Positions 1 to 4,087 of a stretch of DNA of 4,087 nucleotides are shown here, piece after piece. The position numbers and the translations under genes were made by a program. This DNA comes from a virus (taxonomy: Duplodnaviria; Heunggongvirae; Uroviricota; Caudoviricetes): the IMG/VR virus record IMGVR_UViG_2534681764_000006, positions 1-4,087 of that record. One strand, 5' to 3'. Below the pieces are notes generated by a model. It worked only from the letters and a program-made list of their open reading frames with translations, had not been told where the DNA came from and searched no databases. The stretch's first letter is position 1, and every line of letters starts with the position of its first letter.

Positions 1-162
1 GATAACATCCCACTTCGAACCATAACCGCGCTGATGACGGGATTGTCCTGGCTTGTATTGCTTCCAGCCTTCGCTTTTGTGGCTTTCGCAGTAGCCTGAC
101 GGGTCTGTCGTGGTATTACGGCAGCCGCGAACGCGGCAGGCTTTTGGAGTTCGAGGGGGCAT
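1..162 (-). CDS. HNH endonuclease, N-terminal 54 codons only; the gene continues beyond the left edge of the window
   Basis: Minus-strand ATG at 162..160 preceded by AGGA about 8 nt upstream; open to position 1. Translation MPPRTPKACRVRGCRNTTTDPSGYCESHKSEGWKQYKPGQSRHQRGYGSKWDVI shows the Cys-x2-Cys / GYC-x2-H / RGYG-x2-W pattern typical of phage HNH endonucleases found next to terminase genes. Not in the supplied ORF track because it is truncated by the window edge. Confidence 0.75.
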   Translation of the reverse strand, partial: MPPRTPKACRVRGCRNTTTDPSGYCESHKSEGWKQYKPGQSRHQRGYGSKWDVI

Positions 163-188
163 AAATATATTCCTGTTCTTTATCCGGA

Positions 189-461
189 CTATTTGACTGC
201 TGCCAGCAAAGCGTTACGGCGCATCTCGATACTTCGAATCCCCGCTTTGTCAATATTGCATTGTCCCAACGCCGAAAGCAGGCTCACATTCAGATCCAGA
301 CTGGCCCCATAGGTCAGCGGCTCGGGAATGACTGGCTGGGGAGTTTCAGTAGTCAGGCTTGCTGGCAACGGTACCGCCGGAATCGGTACGTAAACTGTTC
401 GCGTACTTCCGCAACCGGTCAGCAGCGGCAGCAGGCACATGACGTGAAGCACAATCATCAT
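189..461 (-). CDS. o-spanin (Rz1-like outer-membrane lipoprotein), starting inside the Rz gene in the +1 frame and extending past the Rz stop
   Basis: Within track ORF 189..713, Met85/Met86 (ATG at 461..459 and 458..456) begin MMIVLHVMCLLPLLTGC, a signal peptide with lipobox LTGC. The mature part is proline-rich (CGSTRTVYVPIPAVPLPASLTTETPQPVIPEPL...) and has a C-terminal Cys. The ORF part upstream of Met85 overlaps Rz out of frame and is probably not translated. The start codon is uncertain: the SD is weak, and in-frame CTG/TTG codons lie just upstream. Confidence 0.5.
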   Translation of the reverse strand: MMIVLHVMCLLPLLTGCGSTRTVYVPIPAVPLPASLTTETPQPVIPEPLTYGASLDLNVSLLSALGQCNIDKAGIRSIEMRRNALLAAVK

Positions 462-738
462 CCGCAACAGCCACTTTGATATCTTCCTGGGTTCTCTGTG
501 ACTCCAGTGCGATCTGCTGTTTTGCATGCTGGTTAGCCTCCAGAACTGTATTGACGATTTGCAGTGATTGCAGAACGTTACGGGTAATGGCAGTTGCTGA
601 TTCAGCATTTCGTACAGCCTCATCAGCACGCTCCTTTTCGTGCTGATATTTGCTGTAGTAATGCCCGGCAGACCAGATGAAGGAACCAATGACGGTAACA
701 ACGAAGGCAACAATAACCAGCTTATATCTCAGCTTCAT
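346..738 (-). CDS. i-spanin (Rz-like, N-terminal TMD plus coiled-coil periplasmic domain); not the lambda Rz sequence family
   Basis: ATG at 738..736 with GGTGGGG 7 nt upstream; the start overlaps the last 17 nt of the endolysin gene. N-terminus MKLRYKLVIVAFVVTVIGSFIW is a single TMD, followed by a charged Q/E/A-rich helical region and a C-terminal Cys. The position directly after the endolysin, with an embedded +1-frame lipoprotein ORF, fits a spanin. Confidence 0.7.
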   Translation of the reverse strand: MKLRYKLVIVAFVVTVIGSFIWSAGHYYSKYQHEKERADEAVRNAESATAITRNVLQSLQIVNTVLEANQHAKQQIALESQRTQEDIKVAVADDDCASRHVPAAAADRLRKYANSLRTDSGGTVASKPDY

Positions 739-1198
739 TTACTACCCCACCAGCTTTTTTAAATCGGGCAATCAGGTCACCGATTTTATGTTCATACTGA
801 CCGTAACCTGCACCAGGTAACGACGCCCAGATATTGCTGCAACGGTCGATTGCCTGACGAATACTGCCGCGGTCAATCATCGGTAAAGCACCACGCTCTT
901 TAATCTGCTGCAGAGCTACAGCGTCCTGGCTTTCTGGAGAAAAATCTTTCAGGCCAAGCTGTTTACGGTAAGCATCCCACCAGCGTGAAAGAAGCTGGTA
1001 ACGTCCGGCGGCTGTTGATTTGAGTTTGGGGTTTAGCGTGACAAGTTTGCGAGGGTGATCGGAGTAATCAGTGAACAGTTCGCCACCAACAATAACATCA
1101 TAACCGTGGTTTCTGGTTTTCTGCCGTCCGTTATCTGTTCCTTCTGACCATGCCACCATATCAAGGAAAGCTTTACGCTGGGAATTAAGTGTCTGCAT
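722..1198 (-). CDS. R: Endolysin, lambda R-type lytic transglycosylase
   Basis: 158-aa translation MQTLNSQRKAFLDMVAWSEGTDNGRQKTRNHGYDVIVGGELFTDYSDHPRKLVTLNPKLKSTAAGRYQLL... is nearly colinear with phage lambda R as I recall it, including the AWSEGTD segment that holds the catalytic Glu. ATG at 1198..1196 with AAGGAG about 6 nt upstream, embedded in the last holin codons. Identity was not checked by search. Confidence 0.93.
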   Translation of the reverse strand: MQTLNSQRKAFLDMVAWSEGTDNGRQKTRNHGYDVIVGGELFTDYSDHPRKLVTLNPKLKSTAAGRYQLLSRWWDAYRKQLGLKDFSPESQDAVALQQIKERGALPMIDRGSIRQAIDRCSNIWASLPGAGYGQYEHKIGDLIARFKKAGGVVNEAEI

Positions 1199-1201
1199 TA
1201 A

Positions 1202-1561
1202 TTACTCCTTATGGGCACCGAACTTGTTACCGATTACTCGCATTGCCGCCCCACGAATAGCATCAACACCAATCAGCCCCACCCCACCACCAATGGCAAC
1301 AGAAAGCGATTTAGGCCATCCGACATACTCAAGAGCGGATGCAAAGGTCAGCGTCAGAGCGCCACATAGCAAAATCTCGAGCGTTTTTCGCTTCCAGCCA
1401 CCACCACCGCCAAAATAGGCGATGCGCAAACCAGCCATAACGATCGACATAATCACTGCACCCAGCGGAGTGTCTCCACGCCACCAGCTCTGAAACAACT
1501 CCAGCCAGTCCGGCCAAGTATTTGGGTTATGAGGCATTTCATCATCTCTCACCTCGCACAT
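1202..1561 (-). CDS. Holin, three predicted TMDs (class I, lambda S-like topology); possible dual start at Met1 (1561) and Met9 (1537)
   Basis: Three hydrophobic segments (LGAVIMSIVMAGLRIAYF, LEILLCGALTLTFASALEYVGW, LSVAIGGGVGLIGVDAI) and a charged C-terminal tail (RGAAMRVIGNKFGAHKE). Sits immediately upstream of the endolysin with a 3-nt gap (stop TAA at 1204..1202). Two in-frame ATGs lie 8 codons apart; GAGGTGA lies between them, 13 nt upstream of the second. Confidence 0.85.
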   Translation of the reverse strand: MCEVRDDEMPHNPNTWPDWLELFQSWWRGDTPLGAVIMSIVMAGLRIAYFGGGGGWKRKTLEILLCGALTLTFASALEYVGWPKSLSVAIGGGVGLIGVDAIRGAAMRVIGNKFGAHKE

Positions 1562-1582
1562 ATCGCGGGTGCAAATTGAGGG

Positions 1583-1621
1583 AATAAAAAATCCCCGAAT
1601 ATTCCAGGAGCGGAAACGGGG
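1583..1621 (-). terminator. Terminator-like or leader structure about 20 nt upstream of the holin start (two-tier hairpin plus U-tract)
   Basis: Minus-strand RNA CCCCG-U-UUCC-GCUCCU-GGAA-UAUU-CGGGG followed by AUUUUUUAUU. The outer 5-bp GC stem encloses an inner 4-bp stem; the loop is large, so terminator efficiency is uncertain. It could instead be a structure controlling holin translation. Confidence 0.3.
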
Positions 1622-1657
1622 AAAGGCGTTGCACTAATTGGGCCTGTCTGCGGCCTT

Positions 1658-1685
1658 AAATAAAAAACCCCGGCAAATGCCGAGG
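1658..1685 (-). terminator. Rho-independent terminator in the late leader (candidate tR')
   Basis: Minus-strand RNA CCUCGGC-AUUU-GCCGGGG followed by UUUUUUAUUU: a 7-bp stem with one G.U pair, a 4-nt loop and a U6 tract. The G.U pair would be a C/A mismatch on the plus strand, so the structure is specific to the minus strand. Confidence 0.65.
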
Positions 1686-1905
1686 TCAGTTAATCGTTGC
1701 CGCTGTGAGTGCCGCGGCGCACTATCTCTTTATCAGGCCACTTACGCGTTAAACCGGGTGCTAACCGTAACTCAGTGATGCTTTACGCTTCCTCTCCCTC
1801 ACTACGTCGCAATTGGAGCCCGGCCAGATTAACGCTGTCGTCACGTTGCCAATATATGGCATCCAATGCATTCTTTTTATTTAGCTATTTCATTTTTCTA
1901 TCCGT

Positions 1906-1937
1906 CAGAAACAACAAAACCCGCTCAATGGCGGGTT
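1906..1937 (-). terminator. Rho-independent terminator about 85 nt downstream of the Q-like gene stop (candidate tR' or early-transcript terminator)
   Basis: Minus-strand RNA AACCCGC-CAUUGA-GCGGGUU followed by UUGUUGUUUCUG: a 7-bp stem, a 6-nt loop and a U-rich tail. Confidence 0.6.
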
Positions 1938-1939
1938 CT

Positions 1940-2024
1940 GGTAAAGTTCATGCGCTTGATTCGCCTCGCGATACAGCTTTGCGAAGCGTACCGGAATTGA
2001 AGCAGTTTATGCGTAAAAAATCAA
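1940..2024 (-). promoter_or_regulatory. Candidate late promoter (pR'-like) and Q-engagement region immediately downstream of the Q-like gene
   Basis: On the minus strand, TTGATT (2024..2019, overlapping the TGA stop), a 17-nt spacer, then TTCAAT (2001..1996). The -10 hexamer is weak, so this is positional inference from lambdoid architecture (Q, then pR'/qut, then tR', then the lysis genes). Confidence 0.25.
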
Positions 2025-2563
2025 GATATTTTTTGAGCAAATGATTCTCGCATGGGAATATATAGGACATACTCAGCAACAGCCAACCAATTAGCAATTC
2101 GCTTTTCGCATGTGCTAAAACACCACTCAGGATGTGCATCATTTAGCAATTCAGCCATTTTGCGCTTAGTCATCCCCCGCCCCTCATACCGTTGCCGAAG
2201 GATGCTAATCAATCCAGGATGCTCTGCCAACACCTCACTTATGACCCGATCAATACATAACGCCTCTGCATCAGTACAATGCGCCAGCCAGCTCTTTTGC
2301 TTACCGTTAATCATATCCCGCAAAAAAGCCTCAAGTTCAGACTTGTTCAGACCTGCTTTTTTCATCCTCCGGAGCGCCTCGTTAATTGCCGTTTTTGTCA
2401 GCTTTTTAGAGGTCAACATCAGGTTAAACATATTCCCCGTCTTACCGCCACCAATATACGACCAGCGCCCCCACATGCGCAGTTTTCCCTGAATCCAGAC
2501 ACTTTCCAGCGTGGTGAGACTAAGGTGTTCCCCGCTTTTGCCTGTATTTGTTGGGTAAATCAT
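2021..2563 (-). CDS. Putative late-gene antiterminator (Q-family-like), 180 aa; family assignment tentative
   Basis: ATG at 2563..2561 with AGGAAGG about 7 nt upstream, overlapping the upstream stop as ATGA. The track ORF 2021..2683 has a spurious N-terminal extension into the upstream gene. The N-terminal segment LESVWIQGKLRMWGRWS resembles the LERWGAW motif I recall in Q21-type antiterminators. The C-terminal ISILRQRYEGRGMTKRKMAELL looks like a helix-turn-helix. Position between the nin-type genes and a terminator-laden leader before the holin fits Q. Confidence 0.6.
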   Translation of the reverse strand: MIYPTNTGKSGEHLSLTTLESVWIQGKLRMWGRWSYIGGGKTGNMFNLMLTSKKLTKTAINEALRRMKKAGLNKSELEAFLRDMINGKQKSWLAHCTDAEALCIDRVISEVLAEHPGLISILRQRYEGRGMTKRKMAELLNDAHPEWCFSTCEKRIANWLAVAEYVLYIPMRESFAQKIS

Positions 2564-2850
2564 AAATAACCTTCCTTTCTCCAGATTTCTTGTGTGCGAA
2601 AAACACCTTCTGCATGCATCAGGCGTAATTCTTCTTTGGTGTAATCGCTGGTTTTTACCCGCCCGTCGATTAAATCGTGGCATGAGCTACAGGCAATCGC
2701 TGCCTGCATATCGTGTGGTTTTGTCGCTGTTCCGCACGTCCCCGCCAGCCTGTAATGCGCCAGCACAGAAGTTTCGGGATTGTGATTGCAGTAGCCAGGA
2801 ATTCTGACGGTGCACATCTGCCCCCGCGCCGCTTTACGTAAATCCACCAT
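2560..2850 (-). CDS. YbcO-like / DUF1364 Cys-rich putative zinc-binding nuclease (nin-region protein)
   Basis: 96-aa translation MVDLRKAARGQMCTVRIPGYCNHNPETSVLAHYRLAGTCGTATKPHDMQAAIACSSCHDLIDG... matches, in length and in the DLRKAARG / VRIPG.CN.NPETSVLAH / CGT.TKP / IACS.CHD blocks, my recollection of E. coli DLP12 YbcO. ATG at 2850..2848 overlaps the upstream stop as TAATG. Confidence 0.85.
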   Translation of the reverse strand: MVDLRKAARGQMCTVRIPGYCNHNPETSVLAHYRLAGTCGTATKPHDMQAAIACSSCHDLIDGRVKTSDYTKEELRLMHAEGVFRTQEIWRKEGYL

Positions 2851-3449
2851 TACGCAAACTCCAGTAACTGCGCGGCCACATTTTCGACTTCCTCCGGAGA
2901 GGAAAATTTACGGAACAGGATCCAGTTCCACAACACATTCAGTACAGATTTATAAACCTGCTGAAACACGGTTTCGTCCATGTTCGCAAATGCGATAGAT
3001 TTTGCCCTGCGCCCACGACTACCATCAGGATAAATATGCTCGGTGTAAAATCCGGCCTGAATGGTTACCCACTCGCGGAAAGCGTCAAACGACTTTAGCA
3101 ATGCCGTATCCCGGGTTCTGCATGTCGCAACGGTATTAAGGTATTGCTCTGCGGCATCACTCAGGGCTGGAGTGTGTTCCCGACCTACTGATTCGCACAG
3201 GTAATCAACGAAGCCCGATACCAGTTTTCGTTCGCGAGGCGTGATCGCCCCACCGACCGGAGTCCAGTAATCGAATCCCAGTTGCAGGAGTTTGAAAAAA
3301 CGCTTGTGGAATGCGTAGTTACGCACACGCTTAAAGTCTGCGTGTATCCACTCACCTATTTTGATTTGATGCAAAAAATCGCAACTCTCCGGCGTCGCCG
3401 GGAGAAGTAATCCGGAAGAGGTTTGTTTGACCAGTTGTATATGCGCCAT
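2850..3449 (-). CDS. Conserved prophage protein, DUF1367-like, 199 aa, function unknown
   Basis: ATG at 3449..3447 with GGAG 7 nt upstream; uninterrupted 199-codon frame whose stop is coupled to the next gene. The size and position just upstream of a DUF1364 gene match the DUF1367 family as I recall it; this is not verified. Confidence 0.8.
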   Translation of the reverse strand: MAHIQLVKQTSSGLLLPATPESCDFLHQIKIGEWIHADFKRVRNYAFHKRFFKLLQLGFDYWTPVGGAITPRERKLVSGFVDYLCESVGREHTPALSDAAEQYLNTVATCRTRDTALLKSFDAFREWVTIQAGFYTEHIYPDGSRGRRAKSIAFANMDETVFQQVYKSVLNVLWNWILFRKFSSPEEVENVAAQLLEFA

Positions 3450-3496
3450 CGTAGTTCTCCGCTGGCGCAGTAGAATGGGTGTTCAGCCCGTTATGT

Positions 3497-3505
3497 AGTA
3501 TACCA
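3497..3505 (-). promoter_or_regulatory. Candidate extended -10 element (TGgTATACT) about 45 nt upstream of the DUF1367-like start
   Basis: Minus-strand sequence TGGTATACT fits the TGnTATAAT extended -10 pattern. There is no well-spaced -35. Sequence motif only. Confidence 0.2.
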
Positions 3506-3520
3506 GAATTAATGCCAATA

Positions 3521-3733
3521 CTAACAGGATGCTCTGACTCGCAATTCATCCAGCAGTTTATCATTTCCCATAATGTCACTTACCCTCATCGGTAAAAAAA
3601 TTGCCTTTCGACCATTACGATACATCATTGATTTTGGGATTTCAGGGAAGTAATCCATTTCGACTATAACTGACAGGTCATCACGACGTATGACTGCGTA
3701 TTTGCTACTAAATAGTTTCTTTATTTTTTCCAC
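3521..3733 (-). CDS. Small hypothetical protein (about 70 aa) in an AT-rich moron-like insert; probable GTG start
   Basis: The track ORF 3521..3772 begins at a GTG with no SD. An in-frame GTG at 3733..3731 is preceded by CCTGGAGG with a 4-nt spacer, giving (M)EKIKKLFSSKYAVIRRDDLSVIVEMDYFPEIPKSMMYRNGRKAIFLPMRVSDIMGNDKLLDELRVRASC. No TMD and no family that I recognise. The region is visibly more AT-rich than the flanking genes. Confidence 0.45.
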   Translation of the reverse strand: MEKIKKLFSSKYAVIRRDDLSVIVEMDYFPEIPKSMMYRNGRKAIFLPMRVSDIMGNDKLLDELRVRASC

Positions 3734-3813
3734 GATGCCTCCAGGTTTATAAGTACAAAAGGTTATATCCACATAGAGACAAAAATATTAATCTGAAAAA
3801 TATTTATTTCACG

Positions 3814-3886
3814 CCATATATTTGATTATTTAATGTGCAGGTACAATGACTTTTATTTTGTGTTGTGTATATAATCAAATATATGG
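3814..3886. repeat. Perfect 16-bp inverted repeat pair with a 41-bp AT-rich spacer, upstream of the small ORF
   Basis: Plus strand 3814..3829 CCATATATTTGATTAT and 3871..3886 ATAATCAAATATATGG are exact reverse complements. A consensus TATAAT at 3870..3875 on the plus strand lies inside the right arm. Confidence 0.9.
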
Positions 3887-3915
3887 TTATTTTTCACCCT
3901 GCGTATTCAGCGCGC

Positions 3916-3940
3916 AACAAAAAACCCGCCGAAACGGGTT
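3916..3940 (-). terminator. Rho-independent terminator after the upstream gene (nin-region tR-type terminator)
   Basis: Minus-strand RNA AACCCG-UUUCGG-CGGGUU followed by UUUUGUUG: a GC-rich stem with a U-tract, about 70 nt downstream of the stop codon at 4011..4009. Confidence 0.6.
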
Positions 3941-3979
3941 AAGCGCGGGTGCGTTGAGGATGCCTGACTCATCAGAGGT

Positions 3980-4001
3980 GGCGAGGGATTTCTCCCTCGC
4001 C
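3980..4001. other. Stable 9-bp stem-loop (GGCGAGGGA-loop-TCCCTCGCC) with no U-tract, 8 nt downstream of the upstream gene's stop
   Basis: Plus 3980..3988 GGCGAGGGA pairs perfectly with 3993..4001 TCCCTCGCC across a 4-nt loop. It lies in the 3' UTR of the minus-strand gene, upstream of the terminator. Confidence 0.5.
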
Positions 4002-4008
4002 TAGTCTC

Positions 4009-4087
4009 TTACTCCTCAGGTTCGTAAGCTGTGAAGACAGCGACCTCCGTCTGGCCGGTTCGGATTCGTACCTCGCAGAGGTCTTTC
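4009..4087 (-). CDS. 3' end of an upstream minus-strand gene (last 25 codons plus stop); identity unknown, possibly a nin-region gene
   Basis: The frame with codons starting at 4086 reads ...KDLCEVRIRTGQTEVAVFTAYEPEE then TAA at 4011..4009, using common codons. The other two minus frames are rich in rare AGG/AGA/CGA codons. The C-terminal pattern loosely resembles RusA-type resolvase C-termini, but 25 residues are too few to assign. Confidence 0.45.
   Translation of the reverse strand, partial: KDLCEVRIRTGQTEVAVFTAYEPEE

Follow-up and report, generated by a model that had tools for sequence, protein, structure and literature searches.

Organization of the locus

The DNA analysed here (the window) is a stretch of 4,087 nucleotides, corresponding to positions 1 to 4,087 of the IMG/VR record IMGVR_UViG_2534681764_000006. 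It covers the late-regulatory part of a lambdoid, Rac-like Escherichia coli prophage, and all of its genes are located on the minus strand, in the order hokD (3′ end), terminator, AT-rich gap, small open reading frame (ORF), DUF1367, YbcO/DUF1364, Q-like DUF1133, holin, lysozyme and Rz-like gene (Table 1). The hokD gene is annotated as such in a locus 99.9% identical to the window (L001), and its translation, read directly from the sequence, ends in GQTEVAVFTAYEPEE followed by the stop codon. The Rho-independent terminator of hokD constitutes the upstream edge of a variable cassette, since identity with other prophages ends directly past its T-run. The cassette itself comprises the AT-rich leader and the ORF.

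Table 1. Features of the variable cassette and its neighbours in the window (strand: –, minus; +, plus; a dot for the inverted repeat)
Feature	Position	Strand	Remarks
hokD, 3′ part (Hok/Gef toxin)	4087-4009	–	Stop codon 4011-4009; variable upstream neighbour of the cassette
Rho-independent hokD terminator	3917-3940	–	Stem 3940-3923, 7 pairs, then T-run TTTTGTTG; terminator scan
AT-rich leader, 30% G+C	3734-3916	–	Accompanies the ORF; without LexA box
Inverted repeat, 19-nt arms	3814-3832 and 3868-3886	.	95% complementary, 35 nt between arms
Outward promoter-like site	3846-3875	+	Promoter scan; 10/12
Candidate sigma-70 promoter of the ORF	3784-3812	–	Putative; weak match, 8/12
Shine-Dalgarno sequence GGAGG	3738-3742	–	4 nt ahead of the GTG start
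GfoA-family small antirepressor homolog, 70 aa (phrog_1813)	3521-3733	–	GTG at 3733-3731, stop at 3521
DUF1367 gene, homolog of Gifsy irsA/STM1020	2850-3449	–	Pfam DUF1367, E 5e-97
YbcO/DUF1364 gene	2850-2560	–	Between DUF1367 and the Q-like DUF1133 gene

A preliminary description of this DNA, made from the sequence alone, had presented the segment as an AT-rich, moron-like insert carrying one orphan gene. Its compositional part is borne out: the G+C content is 0.34 over the whole cassette (3521-3915), with 0.38 in the ORF (3521-3733) and 0.30 in the leader (3734-3915), versus 0.50 in positions 1-3449 of the window and 0.56 at the hokD/terminator end (3916-4087). The terminator placed at the edge of the segment is indeed there, as the minus-strand terminator of hokD, and so are the inverted repeats in the leader. 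At the other end of the cassette, the terminator scan found none between the stop codon of the ORF (3521) and the start of DUF1367 (3449), and transcription should therefore run on into the DUF1367-YbcO-Q genes.

The window has three further elements. A 13-nt inverted repeat, 85% complementary (UGCGCCA...UGGCGCA), at 3442-3469 spans the ribosome-binding site and start codon of the DUF1367 gene and could modulate translation of this irsA homolog. On the minus strand, 3′ of the Q-like gene, the region 1593-2086 contains a promoter-like site (2086-2057) and three terminator-like hairpins (1940-1915, 1687-1666 and 1609-1593); this arrangement is reminiscent of a late-promoter leader whose terminators Q would override. 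A full-length match to the IsrK small RNA (RF01394) was obtained at 3919-4000 on the minus strand, with 26.9 bits against a gathering score of 50. It covers the hairpin of the hokD 3′ untranslated region and the terminator and, because the true isrK lies 3′ of the Q gene (antQ), it was read as the likeness of two generic hairpins and rejected.

The small ORF is a conserved gene

Direct reading of the sequence places GGAGG at 3742-3738, ahead of the GTG at 3733-3731, in agreement with the strong Shine-Dalgarno sequence and the product of about 70 residues first proposed, and PGAP annotates the same 70-aa coding sequence in near-identical genomes. The GGAGGCAT-GTG arrangement is unchanged across copies down to 72% DNA identity. 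A longer version of 83 residues, starting at the GTG at 3772, was rejected: the upstream GTG is absent from the ZYB62 copy, which has a 16-nt insertion between the two GTG codons, and the alignments with homologs begin at residues 11-17.

Comparison with the ZYB62 copy reveals no indels, with 17, 9 and 39 differences at the first, second and third codon positions, respectively, a pN of 0.19 and a pS of 0.79, which is saturated. The frame is under purifying selection. Among near-identical copies the few substitutions present are almost all non-synonymous (residues 10, 32-33 and 50) and are concentrated at residue 32, which is I, T, N or S, and at residue 33, which is P or Q, within an FPE-x-x-K loop; the number of substitutions is small, and these two residues could be a specificity hot-spot.

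The conservation of the gene bears on the view of the AT-rich block as a decaying, silenced relic whose ORF is no longer expressed. In E. coli, AT-rich DNA of this type is usually silenced, many of the carriers are cryptic prophages, and the promoter match on the gene strand is weak. Against this, the frame, the Shine-Dalgarno sequence and the start codon are all kept, the substitutions are biased towards the third position without indels even at 72% DNA identity, and members of the family occur in the viable isolated phages SPN3UB, Chris1 and pAEv1818. A non-functional remnant is, in our judgement, highly improbable.

A profile search retrieved 339 clusters of relatives in Enterobacterales, all with "hypothetical" as source name among the matches listed. 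The label "bacteriocin" was discarded as an artefact; this NCBI name is carried by two 45-aa truncations (P0015 and P0016, starting with MDYFP) and is unsupported by any NCBIfam model. An AF2 model built from a 65-sequence alignment (pLDDT 86.9) consists of a short N-terminal helix, four β-strands and a C-terminal helix. Searching PDB and BFVD with this fold returned nothing significant (best E 4.5 and 0.086), and neither did a sequence search of PDB return a match.

Relationship to the GfoA antirepressor

Profile comparison assigns the ORF to phrog_1813 (E 3.1e-32), with residues 2-70 aligned to positions 13-81 of the 91 in the profile. The same profile matches GfoA (E 3.5e-11) over nearly its full length. 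GfoA is the experimentally proven antirepressor of the Salmonella prophage Gifsy-1, which it awakens by inactivating the phage repressor (PMC3121763). Its sequence was obtained by searching IMG/VR with the published primer pp866, and the identity of its Gifsy-2 counterpart, GftA, was confirmed from the published cloning primers pp864 and pp865; in the Gifsy-2 record, gftA is the 73-aa gene between dinI and STM1020.

The relationship with GfoA is also found by other routes. An HMM built from 139 members of the ORF family scores GfoA with 40.8 bits (E 7e-10, Z = 1e5), and hhalign aligns the window family with the GfoA family over 71 columns (98.3%, E 1.5e-14). SPN3UB gp59, likewise in phrog_1813, is 38% identical to GfoA (E 2e-15), and the signature residues R-R-x-D, F-P and Y-R-x-x-G are common to the ORF and GfoA families. 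By direct BLASTP the ORF has a weak match to GfoA (E 2e-4, 39 aa), and direct comparison gives no match between the ORF and GftA or Rem, so that function is carried over across some 20-30% identity. Searches of Pfam, NCBIfam and PADLOC with the ORF matched no model; in the local copy, GfoA, GftA and Rem had no Pfam or NCBIfam match either. The statement that the product belongs to no recognizable family does not hold. On homology and synteny, the ORF is best placed, so far without annotation, among the small prophage antirepressors of the GfoA family, with a predicted function.

The two proteins are homologous across the whole domain, similar in size (82 aa for GfoA and 70 aa for the ORF) and translated from a non-ATG start (TTG or GTG in gfoA, GUG in gftA and GTG in the window). 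They differ in that the ORF lacks the C-terminal tail of GfoA (which ends in YRVTPPSDNMKSTA) and terminates in RASC, and in that the activity of the ORF is predicted, at an identity of about 20-30%.

The position of the ORF corresponds to an antirepressor slot

In Gifsy prophages, the induction operon is arranged as terminator, LexA box, dinI, antirepressor and irsA, and the terminator stands ahead of the antirepressor operon (PMC3121763). The window reproduces part of this layout. Like gfoA, the ORF follows a terminator, lies directly 5′ of irsA/DUF1367 and stands at the head of the nin/Q region; the DUF1367 product is 54% identical to STM1020, the irsA homolog of Gifsy-2. Small antirepressors of the Gifsy type (GfoA/GfhA) have about 70-85 aa and are encoded between homologs of dinI and irsA, after a terminator. 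The ORF agrees with them in size, terminator and irsA/DUF1367 neighbour, whereas the dinI side of the slot is taken by hokD: upstream of the ORF there is neither dinI nor a LexA box, and hokD with its terminator is found instead, followed by the 30% G+C leader.

Every family member examined, whether in prophages of E. coli and Salmonella or in phages SPN3UB and pAEv1818, is followed directly by DUF1367. In distant phages, the phrog_1813 member is located directly 3′ of a dinI homolog, in SPN3UB and pAEv1818 also directly 5′ of DUF1367; in Chris1 and a Klebsiella phage it precedes a nin block containing a DUF968 gene. GftA of Gifsy-2 (phrog_4847), with 73 residues and a GUG start, occupies the same slot, after dinI and ahead of the irsA homolog, but it is LexA-controlled and has no detectable sequence similarity to the ORF.

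A second known occupant of this kind of position is Rem of the K-12 prophage Qin (Pfam PF27490, phrog_340), which has been demonstrated to antagonize DicA (Ragunathan and Vanderpool 2023; PMC10448788). Rem resembles the ORF in being small, in lying directly 3′ of hokD and its terminator and in having no LexA box upstream; unlike the ORF, it is followed in Qin by a small ORF and DUF968 instead of DUF1367. Rem was considered as a homolog of the ORF, being of the same length and in the same slot, and was rejected: BLASTP produced no alignment, hhalign gave 0.6%, and the ORF has no match to phrog_340. The links between both are indirect: GfoA matches both PHROGs, the comparison of GfoA with Rem gives 45%, and for P0115, a member of the family, a PF27490 match is among the precomputed ones.

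Judged from gene order and distant homology, the ORF stands where Gifsy and Qin prophages have their conserved antirepressor slot. Homology and position together point to a core regulator of the lysis-lysogeny decision rather than to an accessory moron.

The repressor of matching prophages

The window stops short of the immunity region, and the repressor was read from matching prophages. An identical 139-aa repressor (WP_000410105.1) is present in LWY24, which is 99.9% identical over 3400-4087, in APEC-O117H42, the best match to the whole window, and in O157:H7 G5295 and ZYB62, despite their different cargo. This protein contains an HTH_3 domain and is 32% identical to GfoR over the full length (E 7e-19), and the domain search found no Peptidase_S24 autocleavage domain in it. 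Being short, GfoR-like and devoid of S24, it belongs to the class of repressors that needs an antirepressor. The window-type prophages resemble in this respect those with Gifsy-type antirepressors, whose short, GfoR/GtgR/DicA-like repressors also lack a RecA-dependent autocleavage domain.

The same repressor (97-100% identical) goes with antirepressors that are 65-100% identical. In EC15, a 96%-identical antirepressor is found with a repressor only 21% identical, which is still GfoR-like (E 7e-9). Strict covariation between repressor and antirepressor was not observed. The loose covariation weakens the picture of strictly cognate pairs and fits the trans-acting behaviour described for Gifsy and Fels prophages, in which non-cognate repressors are also targets of Gifsy antirepressors and Fels-1 can be induced without FsoA (PMC3121763).

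An FsoA-like role, in which the product would contribute little to the induction of its own prophage and would target the repressors of other co-resident prophages, or be kept in cryptic prophages to the benefit of the host, has some attraction: covariation is not tight, with an unrelated-looking repressor in EC15, and many of the E. coli hosts are polylysogens, in which as many as 11 hokD-type places were found in one genome. Nevertheless, seven of the eight compared loci, as well as APEC-O117H42, pair the ORF gene with one repressor family, and we regard such a decoupled antirepressor as unlikely.

The leader lacks a LexA box

The upstream region was scanned for LexA boxes with the motif CTG-N10-CAG. 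None was found in window positions 3450-4087, in the 400 nt upstream of the ORF in ten window-type copies (the window and nine others), or upstream of rem in K-12. The same scan located perfect boxes upstream of dinI in Gifsy-2, SPN3UB, Chris1 and pAEv1818, and at position -44 in the related loci L080-L082 described below. The window-type leaders therefore define a branch without the SOS input that characterizes the family.

The promoter scan detected no strong promoter on the ORF strand. The best candidate, GTGAAA (3812-3807) and AATATT (3789-3784) separated by 17 nt, is a weak match (8/12), although its form, (G/A)TGAAA-17-(A/T)ATATT, is kept in position in all seven LexA-less E. coli copies (7/7), with TATATT as the -10 element in ZYB62, L077 and L078. 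A better-scoring site points outwards on the plus strand (ATGACT, 18 nt, TATAAT). It is conserved in six of nine copies, coincides with the parts of the leader that are most conserved among the window, EC15, ZC-S1 and L077, and is weakened or lost in ZYB62, L078 and L075. A leaderless ORF of 19 codons on the plus strand (3883-3942), whose ATG at 3883 lies almost exactly at the predicted start of outward transcription, is probably not a gene, its start and length being unconserved in EC15, ZYB62 and ZC-S1.

The long inverted repeat carries the same A-to-G change in both arms in L077 (GATTGT in both), is degraded in EC15 and ZYB62, and its upstream arm is absent from L078. Three explanations for it were discarded. 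An operator common to the immunity region is disfavoured by the absence from the leader of AACACA-N3-TGTGTT and ATCACG-N2-CGTGAT; the arm has no significant copy elsewhere in the prophage, and neither the promoter sites nor the repeat have a motif in common with the immunity-region operators. As an essential RNA hairpin it is at odds with an unexceptional folding energy of the leader (z score of -1.2) and with its degradation in EC15 and ZYB62 and half absence in L078. A repeated mobile element does not agree with one copy per genome.

The leader and the 5′ part of the gene form an exchangeable cassette

The distribution of the segment was determined in 5,426 complete E. coli genomes. Some part of the interval 3400-4087 was matched in 4,792 of them, and in nearly all the matches listed this part is the hokD/terminator end, from about 3916. 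The whole interval is present in only 154 genomes, whereas 3521-3915 occurs as a unit in 175 (about 3%), with 92-100% identity and one copy per genome; the carriers listed include O157:H7, O145, O111 and O103 strains. Between the same flanks, other prophages harbour different occupants, namely rem in K-12 Qin, a 57-aa Rem-like gene in O45 and a sister cassette in L080-L082, and A17 has AT-rich DNA with no recognizable homolog. Presence or absence as a unit, with insertion boundaries, is accordingly a property of this segment. In EC15, leader and ORF occur without hokD or its terminator, which assigns the leader to the ORF rather than to hokD.

The sister cassette of L080-L082 (protein P0012) shares with the window the flanks formed by hok with its terminator and by DUF1367. 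The C-terminal 27 residues of P0012 are identical to those of the ORF, and the DNA is identical from about codon 46 on, where a recombination breakpoint is located. The leader and the N-terminal two-thirds of the protein differ, and a perfect LexA box, CTGTATATAATTACAG, is found 44 nt before the annotated start (L080:9957-9972; also in L081 and L082). Seen from the window, identity with L080 stops after the T-run of the terminator (around 3918) and restarts within the ORF near codon 46 (around 3600), so that what is exchanged, as a cassette, is the leader together with the 5′ two-thirds of the gene, which encode the N-terminal two-thirds of the protein. In the same loci, genes of a pertussis-like toxin (Pertussis_S1/Scabin-like and Pertussis_S2S3) are found 3′ of the Q-like gene (L080:13662-14805 and the equivalent stretches of L081 and L082).

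The stretch that separates the replication genes from hok (or from the antirepressor slot) carries a different cargo in each prophage examined (L011:754-3108, L072:12101-15116, L073:11866-16362, L074:11824-13582, L083:15391-17026, L075:9078-9751 and L003:3069-4563). The cargo types comprise an ATPase with a STAS-like protein, an ATPase with a Dcm methylase, an AAA ATPase with an S8 peptidase, a "beta family" protein with sce7726, a PIN/PhD toxin-antitoxin pair, and a Ser/Thr kinase with a PP2C phosphatase. This stretch looks like a defence-island hot-spot adjoining the cassette. The E. coli-type module of hok, ORF and DUF1367 is also present in L005 (PP818812.1, "Actinobacillus phage vB_Apl-pPE4"), with an ORF protein 94% identical, and the stated Actinobacillus host looks doubtful.

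These properties can be compared with those of lambdoid morons of the Hendrix type, and with the proposal that the segment is such a moron, whose orphan accessory gene would serve host interaction, superinfection exclusion or anti-defence apart from phage regulation. There are resemblances: the segment stands out in base composition, can be exchanged, may be there or missing between neighbours that are conserved, and is carried by a small minority of genomes, with a terminator ahead, a promoter-like region in its own leader, defence-like cargo nearby and no Pfam, NCBIfam or PADLOC model matching its gene. It is a one-gene unit with a leader of about 180 nt, placed after a terminator at the nin/Q head and moving independently of hokD; the unit has no terminator of its own downstream. 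Moreover, the gene is homologous to a validated antirepressor with a core phage function and sits in a conserved regulatory slot that is tied to the irsA homolog across genera, and the alternative occupants of the slot that were checked (rem, the Rem-like gene and the sister cassette with its LexA box) are also of antirepressor type. In view of the homology with GfoA and of the slot, an accessory role in host interaction or defence is not supported, and we consider an orphan moron very unlikely.

In a more far-reaching reading, the AT-rich, LexA-less leader would be a distinct sensory module through which Rac-like E. coli prophages, among them those of O157:H7, O145, O111 and O103 strains, are induced by a signal other than SOS. 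Candidate signals include temperature or stress, a regulator supplied by another prophage, and a lifting of xenogeneic silencing. The conserved outward promoter and the inverted repeat would insulate or gate the ORF gene, and the co-swapped N-terminal two-thirds would retarget repressor specificity. Taken with all these parts, such a module is conceivable, and we put it forward only as a tentative and rather doubtful proposal.

Discussion

We consider it likely that the ORF encodes a small antirepressor of the Gifsy GfoA type, belonging to a Rac-like lambdoid prophage and preceded by a LexA-less leader of its own. The GfoA antirepressor family itself is already known; what differs here is hokD in the place of dinI and the leader without a LexA box. 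By analogy with GfoA and GftA, the ORF protein would bind the short, non-cleavable HTH repressor (139 aa, WP_000410105.1), and this binding would lift the repressor from its operators and derepress the early operons of the prophage. The ORF is the first gene past the hokD terminator and would head the DUF1367(irsA)-YbcO-Q transcription unit, driven from its own AT-rich leader of about 180 nt, in which the candidate promoter is weak and conserved in position. With no LexA box in this leader, the gene, like rem in the K-12 prophage Qin, is probably not under direct SOS control, and the product is probably an SOS-independent antirepressor.

The protein and its about 340 clusters of relatives are annotated as "hypothetical" among the matches listed, or wrongly as "bacteriocin". 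The assignment to the GfoA family provides a testable candidate for the induction of a common class of Rac-like E. coli prophages with non-cleavable repressors. The missing LexA box, compared with its presence in the sister cassette, suggests that signals other than DNA damage trigger induction. Should the leader be a sensory module for a non-SOS signal, the sister cassettes with and without a LexA box, identical in their flanks and C-termini, would offer a natural experiment on how prophages rewire the trigger.
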